A stretch of 64,000 bases of DNA from a virus, in IMG/VR virus record IMGVR_UViG_3300028837_002886, positions 66,932 through 130,931 of that record; one strand, 5' to 3'. The position numbers were made by a program, and so were the translations under genes. The notes under the pieces are model-generated. The model was not told the DNA's origin. It did no database searches and saw only the letters and a list, made by a program, of their open reading frames with translations. Positions 450 through 55,871 of the stretch are shown here, piece by piece. Numbering within the stretch: position 1 is the stretch's first letter; each line of letters opens with the position of its first letter.

Positions 450-1090
450 TCTTCAAAACTCGAGTTTATTATTTGAGGTTTAATAGGTTCGCTCCAACTC
501 ATCATTTCTTCGTCATACTCCACGTTGTTGTTCCAGGCGTCTTGTAGTGCTTCTTCCATGGTATCATCACTTACATACTTTCCTAACTCTTGTTCAATCC
601 TGGAGGCAATGCGCGACAGTTCATACGCATAGCTCCAATTCATATTCTTATCTTTTCGGAAAGCATTAACAACTTCTTCACCATACTCTGTTTTAAGATT
701 TTCCCAATACTCATCAGCCGCAAAGCCTATTTCGTCATTCACGTATTCATACTTGGTATCGTCAGACCAATCATTTTCCTTGGCTTCTTTCTCGAGCTCT
801 TCCATGTCAATCCAGTCGCCGTCTTCTATCTCTTTCATATCATTGAGTATTTTTGTAACTTTTTGTTGAGCTTCCCAAACAGTGTCTACAATGGCACCAA
901 CAGATCGAGTCGCGGCCGGTTTGTTTACCGTTTCATAAAAGATATAGTTCACGAAAGGACTGACATCTTCCACGATATTATAGATATCATCCATGAAACT
1001 ATCGACCGCGCCATCGACAACGCTCACCATCCAGCTCGGCATTTTATTGGGCCATTTTATTATGGCATCAATTAGATTTGTGGCGGTCAT
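446..1090 (-). CDS. Acidic hypothetical protein
   Basis: 214-aa ORF in a tightly coupled minus-strand run; ends KPQIINSSFEE (motif B-like). Confidence 0.7.
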   Translation of the reverse strand: MTATNLIDAIIKWPNKMPSWMVSVVDGAVDSFMDDIYNIVEDVSPFVNYIFYETVNKPAATRSVGAIVDTVWEAQQKVTKILNDMKEIEDGDWIDMEELEKEAKENDWSDDTKYEYVNDEIGFAADEYWENLKTEYGEEVVNAFRKDKNMNWSYAYELSRIASRIEQELGKYVSDDTMEEALQDAWNNNVEYDEEMMSWSEPIKPQIINSSFEE

Positions 1091-2948: not shown

Positions 2949-5038
2949 ACGGTAACATTATCGTCCTCGTATATCGTTATGATGTCTCCATTTCTCGTAA
3001 TTTTGTTTTCTGATATTTTTCTAATTATATCAACATCTAAATCTACTCTGTCTATTGTTTCTACACCAGACGATATTGTATTATCTATAGATCTTAAAAC
3101 ACCAACCAAGGCGTGAAAATAGATTCTTAGCCAATTTAATTTTGGAGTATTCTCTCCTGTACTAATCATTGTTGCTTTAAACTGAATTATATTTCCACAG
3201 TATTTAATATCATCACCACTGTTATACGGTTTATATCCAACTTCTAGTGGATGATCAACGTGTCTCACCTCTATCGATAGTCCTGTTCCTGATGGAGTTT
3301 CAGCATAAAAAGATACACTATCTAAATACACCCCATTTGTATTATCTTCAGGTTGATAGGCAAAACTTTCGTAATAGCCACTACTTTCATAACCCGCGCT
3401 GGAAGTTATTTCCACATTATCCAATTCAGGAGTAACATTTATATCTGTTGTAGATAACTGCCACTTAAGTCGTATTTTATCAGGACTGCCCATACTTTGC
3501 ATTGCTGTTTCCAACTGTGTCAACGTAAGCCATGATTCGTTCCAACTCCCACCACTATTAACTGAGTACTGTCTGAGAACAGTCGTATTTGCTGGAATAG
3601 TAAAAGTCTCTACAACAGAAAGCCATGCAAATATCTCCGCAGGATCAATATCAGTATTCATTGCTATTTCATGGTTTCCCAAAGGATACACCACATCTTC
3701 AGCTACATAAATATTATCTAATTCTGGCGTAACTATTCCTACGTCTGAATGCATAAAAGCTCTAAATTTGAAAACCCCAGAACTTGCAAGTGTAGAAATA
3801 TTAGAATTAATTATACTTGCGACATTAGATTCACTAGCATAATACCAAGAATCAGTTTGCCCTCCCGTGATAGCGGTCCAAGCGGCGCCATTCCACCATT
3901 TCCAAGTGGCTCCATTATCAGAGCTAATTTGATGTTTTATCCCTGAGCCCGCCGGTTTAGTAGATGTTTCTGTGAATACACCTAACACAGTAGCAAAAGC
4001 ATAGCCAGAATTAGGGTAAACATCTGGATTATCAATTGCGTAAGTATCAGGCATTAATTCTGTTCCAGCTCCTCCATTATATCTATAATTCACATAAGAA
4101 GCACTAAGTTCTTGATCGTAAATAACTATTTCATCAACTTGTCCTTTTATTGTATCGATACTAGTAGAAATATTTAAATATTCACTATTAACAGTAGTTC
4201 CTGTTAATGTGTTATTATTAAGAATATATGAATTTTCTATATTATCTATGTAAATATGCATGCCATTAGCTGTAGAACTACCATCATAAGTAACAACAAT
4301 ATGATGATAATTATCATCATCTAAAATAATACTTGTCGCAACTTGTATAACATTAGAGTTGGCATCCCTAATAAAAAATCTAAGTTCTTCGGTTCCATCA
4401 TTCCAATAAATATTAAATCCTTGTAAAACTCCTCCTTTTTTGAAGAGACGTTGATGTCCATCAGTATTCTGTAATTTAAACCAACCTTCAAAACTAAACT
4501 CATCTGTTTTTTCAAAACTAGCTATATTTCCACAATTTATCCATTCATTAACTCCATCAAATTGCAAACAATTATTTAATTTTCCAGTAACCCAATCTGC
4601 ATCTTCCATATTTTGAGTTGTTCCATTCCTACCATTCCCAGAAGAATCAGGAACATTGGTTCCAGAAGATTCGTTTAAATGATACCACGCATAAGGATTT
4701 AGTGGAATTCCTTTTAATCGCGCTACACCTCCGGTTACTTCAATCTTAGCTCCATCAAACGTGTAATTGCCACTTGTCGTAAATGACCAATTATTATCGC
4801 CACCAGCCGCGGGCTTTAACTTGGCAACTTCATTAGCTATCTCTATTTTTGTATCATCATAAGTATAATTTGCTGAGGTAGTGAACGGAATGTCGTCACT
4901 ACTACCAGTTTTTTTTGCAAGTCCTAGATAGGCGCTATCGCCACTACCAATAACTTCTACGTTGCTTTTTGTAGGACTTCCAAAATTAAATTGTGTATCG
5001 CTATTCCATTGAGCTATTCTGGTTGGCATATTTTTCAC
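2903..5038 (-). CDS. LamG/concanavalin A-like domain virion protein (tail fibre or decoration type)
   Basis: LamG signature WYHLNESSG...LQFDGVNEWI...YHHIVVTYDG...GQVDEIVIYD; internal repeats; three TPxL modules. Confidence 0.8.
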   Translation of the reverse strand: MKNMPTRIAQWNSDTQFNFGSPTKSNVEVIGSGDSAYLGLAKKTGSSDDIPFTTSANYTYDDTKIEIANEVAKLKPAAGGDNNWSFTTSGNYTFDGAKIEVTGGVARLKGIPLNPYAWYHLNESSGTNVPDSSGNGRNGTTQNMEDADWVTGKLNNCLQFDGVNEWINCGNIASFEKTDEFSFEGWFKLQNTDGHQRLFKKGGVLQGFNIYWNDGTEELRFFIRDANSNVIQVATSIILDDDNYHHIVVTYDGSSTANGMHIYIDNIENSYILNNNTLTGTTVNSEYLNISTSIDTIKGQVDEIVIYDQELSASYVNYRYNGGAGTELMPDTYAIDNPDVYPNSGYAFATVLGVFTETSTKPAGSGIKHQISSDNGATWKWWNGAAWTAITGGQTDSWYYASESNVASIINSNISTLASSGVFKFRAFMHSDVGIVTPELDNIYVAEDVVYPLGNHEIAMNTDIDPAEIFAWLSVVETFTIPANTTVLRQYSVNSGGSWNESWLTLTQLETAMQSMGSPDKIRLKWQLSTTDINVTPELDNVEITSSAGYESSGYYESFAYQPEDNTNGVYLDSVSFYAETPSGTGLSIEVRHVDHPLEVGYKPYNSGDDIKYCGNIIQFKATMISTGENTPKLNWLRIYFHALVGVLRSIDNTISSGVETIDRVDLDVDIIRKISENKITRNGDIITIYEDDNVTVWKKFDLSLGGRVAL

Positions 5039-29316: not shown

Positions 29317-29742
29317 CTAACCAGTATGGCCGAAACCACCGCTGCTGCGATCTGTTTCGCTTAGGCTCATGTCTGTCGATATAGACGGATGAATAACCTC
29401 AGCGAATACCATTTGAGCTATGCGATCTCCTGCTCTGATTTTGTATGGTGACGGACTATGGTTAATTATGAGAACCTTGATCTCGCCCCTGTAATCACTA
29501 TCTACGGTTCCGGGAGCGTTGAGGACTGTGAGCCCGTGATTGACAGCCAAACCGCTTCTCGGCCTAATCTGAGCTTCCATGTTCTGACTCATTGACATTC
29601 TGAGACCGGTTGGAACTAGCTTAAAGCGCTCAGCGCCAATCGTTACATCTTCAGAAGCATAAATATCATATCCACTGGAGCCATCGGTTTGTCTCTCTGG
29701 TGCTCTGGCGTTATCATTCAACAACTCAAATTCAACTAGCAT
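29317..29742 (-). CDS. dut: dUTPase (trimeric)
   Basis: SGYDI, IRPRSGLA, GTVDSDYRGE, GDRIAQ, RSSGGFGHTG. Confidence 0.95.
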   Translation of the reverse strand: MLVEFELLNDNARAPERQTDGSSGYDIYASEDVTIGAERFKLVPTGLRMSMSQNMEAQIRPRSGLAVNHGLTVLNAPGTVDSDYRGEIKVLIINHSPSPYKIRAGDRIAQMVFAEVIHPSISTDMSLSETDRSSGGFGHTG

Positions 29743-29751
29743 GTCTTCTCC

Positions 29752-29850
29752 TTATTTCTTTTTCTTCTTATGTCTATCTCTTCTGCGTCGCTTTTTAAGC
29801 TTATGGGTTTTCACCTTCTGTCTGTGCCACTTTTTAGCCGAACGCGAAAT
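29752..29850 (-). CDS. bS22-like (AURKAIP1/COX24 domain) small ribosomal protein, ATT start
   Basis: (M)SRSAKKWHRQKVKTHKLKKRRRRDRHKKKKK; SD AGGAG 7 nt before ATT; no in-frame ATG/GTG/TTG upstream. Confidence 0.7.
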   Translation of the reverse strand: MSRSAKKWHRQKVKTHKLKKRRRRDRHKKKKK

Positions 29851-29886
29851 AAGTTTACTCCTTTGTGTGTTATGAGTATATATGTT

Positions 29887-30225
29887 TTATACTTGGACTA
29901 AAAAATTGTCATTAGAAGGCTGGTAATCTATTAGGATAAAAGCAGAATCATCTCTGAAAGGGTTGATCTCTGTAACATCGGGACCATGGATTATTATTTC
30001 ATGCTTTATTGCGATAGGTTTTTTAGTGGAAGGGCCATAGAAAAATTTTGGTCGATTGCTCCTATAATCGACGAGATCAAAATTATTTATCTTTATTTCT
30101 AGCTCTTTTTCTACTTCTTTTATGAGGAAGTTCCGTATCGATTTTGGCCAACGCCACGATGGTGTGCATATGGATATCAAGAGAAAGGCTCGTTTCATGT
30201 AGGAAGTGCGTTCTGTAGATGTCAT
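29887..30225 (-). CDS. Hypothetical protein
   Basis: ORF track. Confidence 0.55.
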   Translation of the reverse strand: MTSTERTSYMKRAFLLISICTPSWRWPKSIRNFLIKEVEKELEIKINNFDLVDYRSNRPKFFYGPSTKKPIAIKHEIIIHGPDVTEINPFRDDSAFILIDYQPSNDNFLVQV

Positions 30226-30518
30226 TATTTTTCTATCGCCTTACCCTTCTTTTTGCCTCTTTTGAAGTGACGTCTCTTGAGTTTAGTCAGCGGAAGAACA
30301 GTCTCAGTGCTATCTATATTTGTGTCATCCACAAAATCGAACGTTTCATAAAACTTGGTCAGATCTTCATTGCAGCATTTAGAGTTAGCTATACGAATAG
30401 CTCTACCTTCATCACCGCTGCTTCTCAATACGGCGTTTGCTATTTTGACCCACTTCTTCTTTTCGGCAGAACTAAGTCCTTTCTTGTGCCTGTCTACATC
30501 CGACGGTTTCCAGGGCAT
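30225..30518 (-). CDS. ChaB-like small protein
   Basis: MPWKPSDV..HKKGLS...KKWVKIANAVL...AIRIANS. Confidence 0.55.
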   Translation of the reverse strand: MPWKPSDVDRHKKGLSSAEKKKWVKIANAVLRSSGDEGRAIRIANSKCCNEDLTKFYETFDFVDDTNIDSTETVLPLTKLKRRHFKRGKKKGKAIEK

Positions 30519-42986: not shown

Positions 42987-43034
42987 TTTTTACTCCTTAT
43001 AGGTGTTCTATATATTATATATGCGTCTAGACGC

Positions 43035-44957: not shown

Positions 44958-47533
44958 TCACTCTTTTAACACTTTCTTTACTATATGTCTGGTTAGATTT
45001 CTAGTAACGGACTTTCTATCACTGAGGTTTCCCAACTTTGTTCCGTCGATGAATATGTCATTGTTGTTATCTATATACATCCTGCCAATGGACTTCCTAT
45101 TATCCTGTTTGGCTTTAGACCAATCGCTTGACCAATCGGATATTATACTCGGGTCTATACAATCGCTATGCTTGGCTCCAATTTCACAATCTAGTTTCAT
45201 TTTATTTCCAACATTCTCTTGGCAATAGCTCTTTTTATAATCTTGCCAAGCTTTTTTGGATCAGCATGTCTACTAATAAGAACTTTGCCGTCCCAATAGA
45301 TGTCATCATCTTTTATTTCTATCCGCCAGCTGTTTTTCGGAACGGCCGGGGCCGCGTCGTCGTCGAATGAGAAAACCCCTCCATCATAATCTACAACTTC
45401 CATCAAACGTGGTGTGTCTTCAAGTGTCATTTTATCCCCTCTATATATGTTTTACTCCCCGTATCTATACTCGTCAAAACCTTCGGTGATATCCTTTTTG
45501 ATGACAATTTCTATAACTTTGTTTTCAAAGTCGACTTCTATATCAATCCATCCCTTTTCGATATAGCTCCAGCAAAGCTCCAGTGCATCATTGCGCGTGA
45601 ACTCGGGATTTATATATTGCAAATGAGGTTCAATAACTCGACAAAACAATAGTTCGTCTATCACCTGAACCTTTTCCGGATGTGTCTGAAAAGTGCGCTC
45701 TCTTAGAGTCATTTTTTATTGATATCCTCTAGCTCATCCATGAAGTCTTCTAGACCTTTTTCCGCATTATCCTTGGTGACCTCTATAAGTTTGAGCATTT
45801 GATCATGGTTGATTATTTCAGCTCTGTACAGCATTAACGCCATGCCAAGCATGTATGTAAAGAATTCAATTGTCATTTTGTTCTCCTTCAACCGCGATAT
45901 TATAAAAGAGCTTCATCTTCGAAGATTTTTTTCGCGAAGATTTTGAGTTTTTCGTTTGTTCTTATTTTGTCTCTAGTAACTAATAATTTTCCTCTGCTTG
46001 CGATCTCCTCTTGTATATCTATGTCTAGGTCCTTGTACATTCCCATGAAAGTTTTAGATATGGATAAAAAGAAAAGAGACAGCATTCCCTGAATGGCATA
46101 ATAAATGCCGTCAGACATGACCAAACCATCTGGTATATTTCCAAAAAAATCATCGTAGTTTTGACCAGGATGATCGTCTATCCATTCTTGAAACAGCTTC
46201 TTGTCTTGAGCCAAAGCATACATTACATCTTTTATCTTATCGCTATCAACCACAATCTTGCGGTTTTGTATATACTCGAAATAGTTGCGCATTGCTTTTT
46301 GAGTAAGTAACTGATGTGGCCAGATTGTCTTATTTTTACCAAGATGAATTATTTGAGATTCAACATACCATCGCATATTAAAGTGGCTGTCGTCTTTGAC
46401 TATGTCATATAGTTTTTCGAATGCTTCCCAATGTTGATGTTTTTTTGGATCTGATCGATTGCAAAAGCGAGACCACTGCTGTTTGGATGTAGAATCGTGG
46501 TTACAGATCCTGTTGTAAAATACGCGCGCCAGGTCATAGATAGTATATTCTCTTGTGTTGAACTTTAAGTCAACTAGATTATGAGCCATTTTTAGATTTA
46601 AAATTGGGACATTGAATTATTTCTACTTTCGAGCTCTGCTTACATGTGTTTACGCAGCGCTTACACATTTCGTGCTTTTGTCTCCAATATGTGGTTTTGA
46701 TTTGTTCTATTGTGACTTTGCTCTTACTCACTCTATTTCCATTATTAATATTTTTTTGGGTCCCAGCGCGGATGAACGAAAAACGTCGCACTCTCCAAGA
46801 GTTTCTGCTGAAATAGTCAAGTCGATTTTTACATCTCTAGGCCCCTTGGGAATTGGGCAGCCAGGGCCTCCTACCGGCATTAATATGGGATCATATGTTA
46901 CATTCATTGCGGTTATGTAACCTGTTAATATTACTTTATCCTTTAGAATAGCCTTGGCCACTTTTTTTTTCATATCATCTTCGGCCATTTATTTAACCTT
47001 CTCCCAGTTTTTGGCCGCATAAACCCACTTTAAACCATCATGGAACAAAGCAACATCTGAATATATGTCTGCGTCTTCTGATGTACATTGCTCAACGCCT
47101 TCTAGAAAACTACCTTCTTGGATCACGTTTATCTGCCAAATGGCCATTTCCATCTTGCCGTACTTGATTCCAAGCAAAGTTCCATCGCTGCATATTAACA
47201 GCACTTCATCGTCGTAGCAATCGACTTCGCCGCGTACATCTCCATCGACTTCTATTAAATCGTCGCTCGTTCCCCATATTTTAGTCATTTCTCGTGGCCC
47301 CTTGTGATTTTTATAGCGTATTAAAATACCTTCTGAAAAAGATACGAAAGCCCGAAAAACGCAGCCGCACATACTATAAACGTCGATACCATTATAAATA
47401 CGGTCACCAAAGCCGCGCTGCTCTTAATAGAATCGGCTACAGTACGATATATGTTTTTGACAGGCGCCGGCCTAGACCAGGCGCCCGTCTTCAGGAGAGT
47501 CTTTGCTGCTTCTTTTTTAATCTTCTTTCTCAT
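44958..47533 (-). CDS. Run of hypothetical proteins (including 44958..45200, 45197..45430, 45452..45712, 45900..46589, 46728..46988, 47321..47533)
   Basis: ORF track; several carry motif A. Confidence 0.55.
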
Positions 47534-51744: not shown

Positions 51745-53849
51745 ATCTCAGGCACCATTATTTTGTTTATAATGAGATCACCATCCCGCATCTTGCCCAT
51801 TTTGAAAACCAAAACTTTATTTTTGATCAGGTTACGAGCACTTTCGTTAAATTGATGCGCAAACAACGGATAACGCCTTACTCCGTTCTCATCCCTAATC
51901 GATACAAAAGCCATCATGTTGCCGTTTCTATCGCGCTTTCTTGTTACATCAGTTATAATGCCGATCAAAGCCCTACTATCAAGCATGCTTTTCAGCTGTG
52001 CTATCTCATCGGCCTTTTCTTCATACAGTATCATTGATATATCCAATGTCAATAAGTCCTGTAATAACTCCAGCTTTTCCTGCTTGTTCCAATCTGTTCC
52101 TTCCCTGGTCTTGATGAACTGTTCAAATGGAACTTTTGCGCCCTTCTTGCGCCACTCATCATAGTTAGTATACAGCGTCCTGCGATTGCCGTAAAGCTTA
52201 TCAAAAGCGCCCGCTTGTATCAAGCTGTCAAGAACCCTCTTGTTTACTTTCGTGCCGGTTTTGTGCTCCTTCAATTTGGTGAAAAAGTCAGTAATACTCT
52301 CATGAGGCGCGTGCTCGGAAATCCATTTAGCGGGAACCACGCCGCAGTTCTTGACATGGCTCAATCCATAAATGACGGTCTTGTCGTCTATAATGCTAAA
52401 GTGCGTTTTACTTTTGTTTACGTCCGGATATAATACTTCTATACCAAGCTGCTTACATTCAGCAGTCAGCCTATCCACAGGGGTTTTGTCAGAGTTCAAC
52501 GAGGCGCACATAAACTCAACAGGATAATGGACCTTGAGCCACGCGGTGTAATACGCAATGGTCGCATACGATAAAGAGTGGCTGCGGTTGAACTGGTAAC
52601 CGGTCTGTTTGATAAGATATTCCCACAGCAGCCTCGTCTCTTTCTGATTTCTGTTTTTCTTTTGACAGCCCTCGAAGAACTCCTGCTCCCACTTCTTTTT
52701 ACCCTTGGTGTCATTCTTGAACTTGGAGTGCCATTTTTCCATATAGCGCCTGAGTGAGTCCGCGCGGCCCAAACTAATTCCGGATGCCATGTGCGCAATG
52801 TTGATGGTTTGTTCCTGGAACACCAATAGACCCAAAGTAGGTTTTAATACCTCTTCTAGAACAGGATGCGCATACTTGATCTCCTCTTCGCCGTGTCTGC
52901 GTTTGATGTAGTTGTTTATAATAGGAATAGAACCTGGCCTGAATAAAGCATTCATGATTACAATATCCTCAAATATTTTAGGTTTCAGCTTTTGTAAATA
53001 ACCTTTCATCGATGGACTTTCAAACTGAAACACAGAGGTGGTCAGGCCTTTGCCAAATAATTTATAAACATCTGGAACCTCGAAGTTTATATTATGTATG
53101 TCTATTTCTTTTCCATGCCTCTCCTTTATAAAGTCCAGCGTATCATGAATAATTTTGAGAGTAGACAGTCCGAGTATGTCAAGCTTCAACAGTTTCATTT
53201 CTGCTATTGACTCACCATCAAACTCAGTCAAAAGCATGTCATCATCCCTGTTGTACTGACATGGAATATATTTTTGGACAGCCTTGTCCGCTATGATGAT
53301 GGCGGCTGCGTGTTTGCCATAGTTACGCATCTGTCCTAACAGTTTCTCAGCAAACTTGAAGATTTCAGGATACTGGTGATAAGCGCTGCTTTCGTTCCAG
53401 TTAGTTTCGTCTATGTTCTTGGATATAGCAATAGCTTTCTGGGCGGGTATACCATGTATTCTCGCGGAATCCTGAAAAGCTGACTTGATGGAATAAGTAA
53501 TGACGTTACACACCTGAGCGACGTTCGTCTGACCAAATCTTCGCTTGATGTAATCAATGACATCACCTCTGCGGGCATCTTCAAAATCAATGTCTATATC
53601 AGGAGCTTTGCCAGATATCGTCAATTTTTCAGGTTCGTCATTTATGGGATCATGATGAATGTATCCCAACAAATACCAAATCAGGATATTGGGATGCGGG
53701 TCGGTTCCGTTATCAACATCTTTCAAAAGGTTGGTGTGAGTTATGATCTCATATTTCTTGAACTCTTTTAGTTCATAATCCAATCGCTGGCGATGCTTCT
53801 CGTCGTTTATGCCTTTTTCTTTCAACAGGCGGTATAGTTTTTCTTTCAT
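51741..53849 (-). CDS. dnaE: DNA polymerase III alpha (DnaE), C-terminal part: catalytic palm, fingers, HhH, OB
   Basis: PDIDIDF, GKHAAAII, KLDILGLSTL, VFQFES, FQEQ, YQFNRSH, MAFVSIRD. Confidence 0.92.
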   Translation of the reverse strand: MKEKLYRLLKEKGINDEKHRQRLDYELKEFKKYEIITHTNLLKDVDNGTDPHPNILIWYLLGYIHHDPINDEPEKLTISGKAPDIDIDFEDARRGDVIDYIKRRFGQTNVAQVCNVITYSIKSAFQDSARIHGIPAQKAIAISKNIDETNWNESSAYHQYPEIFKFAEKLLGQMRNYGKHAAAIIIADKAVQKYIPCQYNRDDDMLLTEFDGESIAEMKLLKLDILGLSTLKIIHDTLDFIKERHGKEIDIHNINFEVPDVYKLFGKGLTTSVFQFESPSMKGYLQKLKPKIFEDIVIMNALFRPGSIPIINNYIKRRHGEEEIKYAHPVLEEVLKPTLGLLVFQEQTINIAHMASGISLGRADSLRRYMEKWHSKFKNDTKGKKKWEQEFFEGCQKKNRNQKETRLLWEYLIKQTGYQFNRSHSLSYATIAYYTAWLKVHYPVEFMCASLNSDKTPVDRLTAECKQLGIEVLYPDVNKSKTHFSIIDDKTVIYGLSHVKNCGVVPAKWISEHAPHESITDFFTKLKEHKTGTKVNKRVLDSLIQAGAFDKLYGNRRTLYTNYDEWRKKGAKVPFEQFIKTREGTDWNKQEKLELLQDLLTLDISMILYEEKADEIAQLKSMLDSRALIGIITDVTRKRDRNGNMMAFVSIRDENGVRRYPLFAHQFNESARNLIKNKVLVFKMGKMRDGDLIINKIMVPEI

Positions 53850-53864
53850 ATTGTTATGTATGTC

Positions 53865-55871
53865 TTATGATTTAGTAACGTCATGTAATACCTTTGCGAG
53901 AGTCTCGAGCGTAAACGGTTTCTGTATAACATCCTTGAAACCATAATCTTTGTAGTTGCTCATAGCATTGGATGTAGAATAGCCGCTTGAAACAATAGCC
54001 TTGACCTGCTTGTCTATTTCCAGGAGCCTCTTTATGGTCTCAATACCATCCATACCCCCAGGCATAGTAAGATCTATAACAACGGCATCAAAGTGCTTAT
54101 CTATCATGGAACCCTTGTAGGTCTCTAATGCCGCCTCACCGCACGACACCACGGTAACAGTGTAGCCCAAGTCTTCTATTAGATCCTTGGCTATCTCTCT
54201 AACCGGCGCCTGATCATCTACAAAGAGCACGTTGCCTCGGCCATTTAGGTGTGCATCCAAATCTTCTTCTTTTATTTCTTCTAAAGTCGTGGGTAAATAC
54301 AAAAAGAATGTGGAGCCTTTGCCTAACTCGGAATCAACCCACACGCAGCCTTCGTGATTTTTGATAACAGAATAGGCGGTGGCCAATCCAAGCCCGCTTC
54401 CTGCGTGTTTAGTTGTGAAATAGGGATCAAATATTTTGTTGAGGTGTTCCTTTGGTATGCCTATGCCTTTGTCAGCAATCGTAACTTCCAAATATGCACC
54501 CGGCTTTAGATGAGCATCGCAAGGTACGCCCATGGGCGCCTTCACCTCTCTCGCCGCTAATTTTATGACGCCGCCTGTGGGCATGGATTGCATAGCGTTT
54601 ATCAATATGTTTTGTATAACCTGAGATATTTGACCAGGATCAATGTGAGCGTTAGGTATGTCTTCTGGTATGTTGTATTCTATTTTAGAGTTACAACCAC
54701 TAGTGGTAAAAGTGGTTGTCTCCATTATAATTTCCTTTATGGATACTGTTCGACGAACTGGCAGACCTCCACTGGAGAATGTCAACAACTGCTGCGTCAG
54801 ACTTTTAGCGCGCTTGCAGGCCTTTAGTGCCTGTACAAGTCTGTTTATTACTTCATTTTCCAGTTTTAGATCTGGCTCGTCGAGAACCTGGTCAGATTTT
54901 ACATGTCTGCGGCTATGCATCAAAGCCAGTTCGACATTGCCACTGATAGCCGTCAGTATGTTATTGAAATCATGGGCAATACCACCGGCCATTACGCCAA
55001 CTGCTTCCAGTTTTTGGGATTTAGATAACTCCAACTCGGTCTTTCTCTGGAGTGTAATATCTCTAAACACCGCGACAGCACCGACAATATCGCCTTCTTT
55101 ATTTTTGATTGGCGCTGCTGTATTATCGATAAGCCGGCTTTTGCCTCGTTTAGATATAAGAACTACATCTTTTTTAAGTTCAATAATCTTACCTGTCTCT
55201 AGAGCCTTTTGTAACGGGTTAGGGGCCATTGCGTTGGTCTTTTCATCAAACAAATGAATGATGGCATCAAAAGGCTTTCCTATCACTTCCTTCTGTTTCC
55301 AACCAAGTATGTGTTCCGCCATGCGGTTTAGTATAGTTATTTCGCCTTTGGCACCTACAGCGACAACACCATCGCTGATGCTCTTCAATGCAATATTTAA
55401 TCGTTCGGTTTCTTCGGCCAAGGCTCGCTGCGCCTTTACCCTTTCGGTAATGTTGCGATGCTGCACTATAGCATTGACAACTTTGTTCTTAATTATAATA
55501 GGCGTGATAGTTACATCTAACGCGAGGGCGCTGTGCATCGTAAGGTGTGCGTGTTTTATCTCTGCAGGAGTATAATCTAACATAAAATGCACAGGTTGTT
55601 TTTCATAGAAAACCTTATCTATGAGAGGAATCAAATTCTCTTTGTGAAACTCTTCATCCTTGAATAGATTATATACTCCAACTACTTGTTCATCCGTGAT
55701 ATCAAACAGATCGCGGTTGACCTGGTTCTGCATAATCATTGTGCCCTTTTCGTCCGACAACCACATACTGTTTGGGCTGTTTTGTATGATTTTGCCGCAG
55801 AACTTATTTATATCTTCTTTTGTGATTTTGTTATTAGTATTTAGTAACAGGTCGTTTTTTCTTTTTCTCAT
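53865..55871 (-). CDS. Hybrid sensor histidine kinase (PAS-PAS-HisKA-HATPase-REC)
   Basis: AGGIAHDFNNIL, NILINA, DKGIGI, FTTK..GSGLGLA; REC FVDD...IDLTMP...KPF. Confidence 0.95.
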   Translation of the reverse strand: MRKRKNDLLLNTNNKITKEDINKFCGKIIQNSPNSMWLSDEKGTMIMQNQVNRDLFDITDEQVVGVYNLFKDEEFHKENLIPLIDKVFYEKQPVHFMLDYTPAEIKHAHLTMHSALALDVTITPIIIKNKVVNAIVQHRNITERVKAQRALAEETERLNIALKSISDGVVAVGAKGEITILNRMAEHILGWKQKEVIGKPFDAIIHLFDEKTNAMAPNPLQKALETGKIIELKKDVVLISKRGKSRLIDNTAAPIKNKEGDIVGAVAVFRDITLQRKTELELSKSQKLEAVGVMAGGIAHDFNNILTAISGNVELALMHSRRHVKSDQVLDEPDLKLENEVINRLVQALKACKRAKSLTQQLLTFSSGGLPVRRTVSIKEIIMETTTFTTSGCNSKIEYNIPEDIPNAHIDPGQISQVIQNILINAMQSMPTGGVIKLAAREVKAPMGVPCDAHLKPGAYLEVTIADKGIGIPKEHLNKIFDPYFTTKHAGSGLGLATAYSVIKNHEGCVWVDSELGKGSTFFLYLPTTLEEIKEEDLDAHLNGRGNVLFVDDQAPVREIAKDLIEDLGYTVTVVSCGEAALETYKGSMIDKHFDAVVIDLTMPGGMDGIETIKRLLEIDKQVKAIVSSGYSTSNAMSNYKDYGFKDVIQKPFTLETLAKVLHDVTKS

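Follow-up and report, generated by a model that had tools for sequence, protein, structure and literature searches.

A bS22-like small gene with a proposed ATT start codon in the genome of a sediment tailed phage

The bS22-like gene and its phage genome

The window analysed here is the last 64 kb (64,000 nucleotides) of a 130,931-base IMG/VR virus record with a CheckV completeness of 70, and the bS22-like gene is located at approximately 96.7 kb of that record. On the minus strand, a 32-codon frame extends from an ATT at 29850-29848 to a TAA at 29754-29752. Its product, (I)SRSAKKWHRQKVKTHKLKKRRRRDRHKKKKK*, consists of 32 amino acids including 12 lysines, seven arginines and three histidines. 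The stop-to-stop frame around this small ORF is 44 amino acids long. The features of the locus, in window coordinates, are:

29317..29742, minus strand: dUTPase gene, directly downstream (Pfam PF00692, E-value 2.9e-34)
29752..29850, minus strand: bS22-like gene, 32 codons plus TAA
29848..29850, minus strand: ATT, the proposed start codon, in a frame without an upstream canonical start
29858..29863, minus strand: Shine-Dalgarno (SD) sequence AAGGAG, with a 7-nt spacer (29857-29851) to ATT
29877..29884, minus strand: CATATATA, a recurrent promoter-like phage motif, 26 nt upstream of ATT
29887..30225, minus strand: 112-aa ORF upstream, missing from one variant contig (run X2, record 14)

This layout had been described in a first-pass annotation of the DNA and was borne out on all three points. 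The 32-codon ATT frame with an SD 7 nt upstream is present on the minus strand at 29850-29752, the claimed motif upstream of the ATT was confirmed as CATATATA at 29884-29877, and the stop said to stand in frame with no canonical start before the ATT is the TAA at 29889-29887, which is separated from the ATT by 12 codons containing no ATG, GTG or TTG. As this TAA is also the stop codon of the 112-aa ORF, the frames of the two ORFs coincide. Family searches gave no family for the 112-aa ORF. Likewise, no family was found for a 97-aa ORF (window 30225-30518, minus strand) located two genes upstream of the bS22-like gene, in which the last 20 residues are K/R-rich. On the downstream side, the ATG of the dUTPase gene (29742) lies 9 nt past the stop of the small ORF and is preceded by its own GGAG at 29751-29748; the dUTPase gene and the bS22-like gene are probably on one transcript.

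The bS22-like ORF is inside a genuine tailed-phage genome and not in a host flank. Nearly all long frames of the phage are on the minus strand, and PHROG matches were obtained for baseplate wedge and tail proteins, DNA polymerase (7.5e-162), helicase (2.4e-82) and an endolysin-type transglycosylase. Two further products of the phage are a CCA-adding tRNA nucleotidyltransferase (NF009814, 2.5e-77; L317 9614-10996, minus strand, genome bases 45614-46996) and an ABC ATPase of two fused domains that most resembles YejF (5e-196, under the cut-off of that model; L317 16633-18210, minus strand, genome bases 52633-54210). Searches of the phage record for the bS21 family, and of the window plus genome bases 16000-66931 for tRNA genes, were both negative.

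When 6 kb was compared using blastn, the sole match was a dUTPase fragment of a Rhizobium phage. Relatives reached via the dUTPase (80 viral and 80 metagenome loci) had best identities of 52-56 %, and a regular expression detected no bS22-like ORF in these 160 loci. A scan of viral contigs for the core RQK[VIM]KTHK gave six matches, all of them unrelated, and neither the dUTPase-locus scans nor the core scan gave a close relative of the phage.

Similarity of the peptide to bS22

When the peptide was compared with all PDB chains using phmmer, six sequences were matched, four of which are bS22 or mS38 and two eL41. The best match was the bS22 of F. johnsoniae (Fjoh_1533, 7JIL chain 5, here 7jil_5) with an E-value of 0.0094 and 19/28 identical residues over nearly the full length of both proteins, followed in the ranking by mS38 and the Borrelia bS22 (Borrelia burgdorferi bb0822, 8FMW chain V; E-value 0.15). 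The F. johnsoniae protein has 30 amino acids compared with 32 in the phage, and it shares with the phage peptide the register K-V-x-T-H-K-x-K-K-R-x-R-x-x-R-H-K-K-K-K and a C-terminal lysine run. It differs in being cellular and chromosomal, with an ATG start and no SD, whereas the phage peptide has an extra N-terminal residue and W, H and L at basic positions.

The identities were also compared with those of 1,000,000 shuffles keeping the composition of the phage peptide. The peptide has 19 identities to a Flavobacterium-type sequence (L106), 21 to the locus of a MAG titled Candidatus Zixiibacteriota (L171) and 18 to L098, while the shuffle maxima were 18, 18 and 16, respectively, with 0/1,000,000 reaching the phage value in each case. 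For the weaker pairs, 16 identities to a viral sequence (L083) were reached by 28/1,000,000 shuffles and 15 identities to a Borreliella locus (L160) by 346/1,000,000.

A DNA-pattern scan of one genome per species gave at least 120 loci. Those listed were mostly from Bacteroidota, with others from Ignavibacteria, Chlorobiaceae and Spirochaetes and from single Omnitrophota, Zixiibacteriota and Neomarinimicrobiota MAGs. In all 119 readable bacterial loci listed (one locus was edge-cut), the distance from the start codon to the T of THK is exactly 13 codons, and the start is ATG in 113, GTG in five, TTG in one and ATT in none. The products of these 119 genes have 28-31 amino acids, near the 32 of the phage peptide. 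The ATT of the phage is 14 codons before the T of THK instead of 13, which corresponds to the one extra residue.

The phage peptide keeps the core K-[VIM]-x-T-H-K-x-K-K-R-x-R-x-x-R-H-K at a fixed register from the N-terminus, followed by the C-terminal lysine run, and 14 invariant columns are common to it and five bacterial and viral sequences. Three positions are altered when compared with the 61 distinct bacterial sequences among the matches listed. L18, after THK, stands where R is found in 61/61, H9 where K is found in 60/61, and W8 where the bacterial sequences have R, H or K.

A PSSM was built from these 61 listed distinct sequences and is partly conditioned on the phage sequence, because the 61 were fetched with a DNA pattern made of residues shared by the phage and bS22; with it, the phage peptide scored 55.1 bits, compared with a mean of 3.0 (sd 5.9, maximum 46.3) for the shuffles, none of 1,000,000 reaching the phage score. 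True bS22 members ranged from 93 to 115, and thus the phage copy is well diverged. When an HMM of the same 61, conditioned in the same way, was applied to the phage genome, in which 3,742 stop-to-stop frames have 20 aa or more, this frame alone was found (E-value 2.1e-5, with a 24.5-bit bias correction applied), the next-best frame having an E-value of 0.23. The PDB search and the whole-genome peptide searches described below are free of this conditioning.

A search with the AURKAIP1/COX24 profile, suggested in the first-pass annotation, failed to recover the peptide. The match to Pfam PF08213 (COX24_C; mS38/AURKAIP1/DUF1713) had an E-value of 2.4 and 8.6 bits, below the gathering cut-off of 23, and in the genome search the frame scored 6.7 bits; the gene is not filed under PF08213. 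This result is uninformative, since a genuine Bacteroidota bS22 used as a control (L082) had no Pfam match either, and the PF08213 test is therefore blind to this bS22 subfamily. Neither L082 nor the second control, L083, had a Pfam match at E≤10 or any match in NCBIfam, which also gave nothing for the phage peptide. The bS22-type identity proposed by the same annotation nevertheless holds beyond K/R bias, as indicated by the PDB matches, the shuffles, the HMM and the genome searches.

In the case of general protein and phage databases, the 32-aa peptide had no matches in a library of 1.84 billion proteins, where a query that short is unable to reach significance, and the 44-aa stop-to-stop frame used as a homologue query gave no candidate with three shared words. 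An alignment-based locus scan gave 591 pattern stretches, none of which was confirmed by tblastn. The only PHROG obtained for the peptide was phrog_17404 (E-value 0.091), and tblastn against GenBank phages with the low-complexity filter on gave no match.

The peptide was also searched against whole genomes of four phyla represented among the pattern loci. In the phylum of the MAG titled Candidatus Zixiibacteriota (G001), 114 of the 121 genomes were matched at E≤0.1 and 104 at E≤0.01 (best 28.9 bits), as a rule with one locus per genome, and the best matches had 81-82 % identity over 27-28 residues. At E≤0.01, matches were found in 6/51 genomes (best 18.7 bits) of the phylum of the Omnitrophota MAG, 10/41 (best 21.6 bits) of that of the Neomarinimicrobiota MAG and 1/41 (best 20.4 bits) of that of the Ignavibacteria MAG. 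Of the four phyla sampled, it is in the phylum of the Candidatus Zixiibacteriota-titled MAG that the bS22 type MPSGKKRKRQKIKTHKRKKRRRRDRHKKK is commonest and closest to the phage peptide.

The best 15 loci of this phylum consist of MPSGKKRKRQKIKTHKRKKRRRRDRHKKK plus a short variable C-terminal tail, in ORFs of 30-32 aa with a GGAGG SD and an ATG; one of them (L299) matches 7jil_5 at 9.8e-8 over its full length. These unannotated bS22 genes have in common with the phage gene the stretches RQK-x-K-THK and RRRRDRH and the form of an SD-led small ORF, but they start with ATG and not with ATT. The lineage-specific Q, K and RRRRD residues that the phage peptide shares with them are rare among the 61 listed distinct sequences. 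The likeness is at the protein level, as 22-23/29 residues are identical but only 50-57/87 nucleotides.

Two other phage genes were searched in the same phylum. The YejF-like ABC ATPase was matched in 0/41 genomes at 1e-120 and the dUTPase in 1/41 at 1e-25 (49 % identity). A Zixibacteria-type host is suggested tentatively for this sediment phage by one 32-residue gene, with two other genes giving no support.

Start signals and the ATT codon in sediment contigs

The motif CATATATA occurs 18 times in the window, compared with 2.63 copies expected, and 0/100 shuffles reached 18. All but one of the copies (17/18) are on the minus strand, which is the gene strand, and the minus-strand sites span 17659 to 60438 (e.g. 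43023, 41251, 28221, 26182 and 17659). When the sites were read, most copies were found to be followed by a purine-rich SD-like stretch and a start codon within approximately 45 nt, usually 10-45 nt. The motif is probably a phage promoter element. TTTG was also seen approximately 12-16 nt upstream of several copies. At the copy at 43023, AAGGAGTAAAAA precedes an ATG with the same AAGGAG-T-AAA layout as at the bS22-like ORF. The small ORF therefore shares its motif-SD-start layout with ordinary genes of the phage, except that ATT replaces ATG.

An SD-like 4-mer was present upstream of 86/165 phage genes in a crude gene call, compared with 15 % at random positions, which indicates that the phage relies on SD sequences. 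Inside the small ORF, the only canonical start codon in frame is the GTG of codon 13, which lacks an SD at a suitable distance. Among the 146 AGGAG sites on the gene strand, two are followed by an ATT at 4-9 nt that opens a frame of at least 30 codons with no upstream canonical start. The other of these (window 8044) showed no likeness to a known protein on inspection, and no further phage gene with an ATT start of this kind was found. The ATT is the sole plausible start of the bS22-like ORF. A sigma-70 and terminator scan gave nothing relevant to the small ORF, Rfam gave no family at E≤1 for the leader and ORF, and folding of the 144-nt stretch of leader and ORF showed nothing unusual (z -1.37).

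In E. coli, AUU works poorly as a start codon. The gene for IF3, infC, starts with AUU and is autoregulated in that species, this start being the target of IF3 discrimination. The phage gene resembles infC in its proposed AUU start with a good SD and in encoding a putative component of the initiation machinery.

The ATT was further examined in sequencing runs of a single marine-sediment study. The stretch is present in four runs, derived from three samples, one of which may have been the source of the record; no RNA run was listed as carrying it. In each of the four, a contig extends across 29848-29850 with zero differing letters:

Run X1, record 7: spans 29735-30300, ATT unchanged
Run X2, record 13: spans 29813-30300, ATT unchanged
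Run X3, record 17: spans 29618-30300, ATT unchanged
Run X4, record 20: spans 29688-29877, ATT unchanged

The depths of these contigs are low (2-9), and rare variants are dropped by contigs. The first-pass annotation had considered that ATT could be an error for ATG; this did not prove to be the case, as the ATT was the same in the contigs of three samples.

A diverged variant contig (run X2, record 14) keeps 29813-29863, a stretch covering the SD, ATT and the opening codons, apart from two differences within it. After 29863 it has 74 other letters and then joins at 30218, so that the 112-aa ORF and the motif region (354 bases) are replaced while SD, ATT and the beginning of the ORF remain. In addition, a short contig from the X1 sample matches just the last 32 bases of the ORF (29753-29784). 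When its flanks were reverse-complemented and translated by eye, a Bacteroidota-type bS22 core was read, and the contig presumably represents the bS22 gene of a cellular community member, with a cross-match in the DNA.

Possible role and other viral contigs

Cellular bS22 is described as a single basic helix between h44 and h45 of 16S rRNA that touches the 50S subunit (PMC7797042). In F. johnsoniae, its four terminal lysines face the 50S subunit, and the protein is absent from purified 30S subunits but was found in 70S initiation complexes; a position within reach of the C-terminal domain of IF3 is predicted for its C-terminus (PMC13000457). Loss of bS22 in M. smegmatis raises kanamycin susceptibility (PMC10081302). 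The bS22 of Borrelia is an unannotated gene with a GUG start that was missed by gene finders (PMC10618245). It is similar to the phage gene in being unannotated and in its non-ATG start, but GUG is a common alternative start codon and the AUU of the phage is not.

Among virus-encoded ribosomal proteins (bS21, bL12, bL9, bL31, bL33 and others), Mizuno et al. 2019 describe a preference for loosely bound, exchangeable ones (PMC6375957). The phage gene resembles these in encoding a small, loosely bound and exchangeable type of protein in a large phage of aquatic or sediment origin. The term bS22 has no occurrences in the main text of that paper, whose supplementary tables may list more proteins, and none in the PhiMa05 preprint. 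Judged by title and abstract start, none of the articles retrieved that mention both bS22 and phage has a phage-encoded bS22 as its topic. The first-pass annotation had named mostly bS21, bL12 and bL9-type proteins as phage ribosomal proteins, and in the texts searched bS22 was not found among the handful of small, exchangeable ribosomal proteins that viruses carry. On sequence grounds, the phage bS22-like gene is an addition to these proteins, with an unusual start codon.

We consider it likely that this is a real tailed-phage gene for a diverged bS22, captured from a bacterium with MPSGKKRKRQKIKTHKRKKRRRRDRHKKK-type bS22, made from AUU and acting in host ribosomes. The transcript would begin just past CATATATA, and the strong SD would help the ribosome to initiate at AUU and produce the 32-residue peptide. 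The peptide would form a basic helix in the h44/h45 pocket beneath the platform, with its C-terminal lysine run reaching the 50S subunit as in cellular bS22. Because cellular bS22 is held loosely and is lost from purified 30S subunits, the phage copy could enter host ribosomes during infection; it fits the rule of Mizuno et al. for loosely bound viral proteins, (PMC6375957), and for this reason the peptide probably enters host ribosomes at the bS22 site. In host ribosomes, it may keep them supplied with bS22, or it may alter their initiation or decoding behaviour. The weak AUU start would result in a low output, or in an output tied to IF3 activity as in infC. The weak AUU and the three replaced basic positions argue against a simple stoichiometric role in the ribosome.

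The ORF is unlikely to represent a captured bS22 gene in decay, in which the ATG has mutated to ATT and the peptide is no longer made while the frame is so far unbroken. A decaying gene would agree with the absence of ATT from the 119 listed bacterial homologues and with the changes at three basic positions that are otherwise conserved, and a frame of 32 codons may long stay open by chance. However, the gene still has a strong SD at the correct distance and a phage motif copy of its own, neither the core nor the C-terminal lysine run is disrupted, and the diverged variant contig keeps 29813-29863 with only two differences while the upstream DNA is replaced. The substituted basic positions, together with the low profile score, would also allow a changed function, so that the peptide could be made but be used in a non-ribosomal or antagonistic manner, as a nucleic-acid-binding or DNA-condensing protein or as a defective subunit blocking host ribosomes. 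In line with such a use, ribosomes with a viral bS21 were reported to be nearly inactive in vitro by Mizuno et al. (PMC6375957). We regard it as rather improbable, as the peptide has retained its length and register, the THK..KKR..R..RHKKK core and the lysine tail, which are the features seen in contact with rRNA and the 50S subunit in solved structures (PMC7797042, PMC13000457).

The remaining explanations do not involve a bS22 gene started at ATT. A chance basic ORF, or a mere 5' leader of the dUTPase mRNA unrelated to bS22, would be in keeping with the low-complexity sequence, the Pfam E-value of 2.4 and the lack of matches in the 1.84-billion-protein library. It is very improbable, given that none of the 1,000,000 shuffles reached the identities to L106, L171 or L098 or the PSSM score, that the frame is the sole significant one of 3,742, that one locus per genome was found in 114/121 genomes and, in the case of a leader, that no Rfam family and no unusual fold (z -1.37) were observed. 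Readthrough of the in-frame TAA, by which the small ORF would be a C-terminal extension of the 112-aa protein and the ATT would not be used, is suggested by the coincidence of the two frames, but a shared frame has a one-in-three chance. In addition, the promoter-like motif and the SD lie between the two ORFs, the variant contig without the 112-aa ORF keeps the SD-ATT stretch, and the small ORF itself also ends in TAA, all of which makes readthrough extremely unlikely.

Returning to the reading of a phage bS22 made from AUU, an IF3-dependent output is speculation by analogy with infC, where the control by IF3 is established, whereas for the phage gene the link is the predicted position of the bS22 C-terminus near IF3 (PMC13000457). 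In a more specific and quite doubtful version, the AUU would be functional and the peptide made only when IF3 discrimination weakens during infection; the W8/H9/L18 peptide would then replace host bS22 at the h44/h45 pocket, beside the IF3 C-terminal domain, and shift start-site selection in favour of phage messages. If this were true, the gene would encode a viral ribosomal protein carrying its own translational sensor, and it would also give initial molecular access to the phages of Zixibacteria-type sediment bacteria. With its altered conserved residues and rare AUU, the phage copy may also serve as a natural variant for probing bS22 at the subunit interface, which adjoins the decoding and initiation sites.

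bS22 has been recognised only in recent ribosome structures and is routinely missed by gene finders. ORF-length cut-offs and Pfam thresholds hide such viral genes, and at least two other large viral contigs carry one. When IMG/VR was scanned with patterns, two viral contigs with bS22-like ORFs were observed besides host flanks:

L083 (231-kb contig), 3342-3434, plus strand: 30-aa bS22-like ORF with an ATG start and no SD, among small ORFs
L290 (115-kb contig), 653-748, minus strand: 31-aa ORF of the mycobacterial MGSV type

The best PDB match of the L083 ORF is 7jil_5 (2.3e-4), and its record has a terminase match at 3.7e-11. The L290 ORF matches 9j1m_x best (1.4e-4); its contig is very AT-rich and rated 99 % complete, and no match to Terminase_6N (PF03237) was found in the record. 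A Bacteroidota bS22 gene is also included in six IMG/VR contigs (L082 and L285-L289). The gene of L082 (2098-2187, minus strand) was ruled out as a viral bS22 and assigned to the host flank of an integrated element; it is located between HU and RNase G, approximately 2 kb from a tyrosine recombinase (integrase). The five contigs L285-L289 have an identical bS22 gene and identical upstream DNA.
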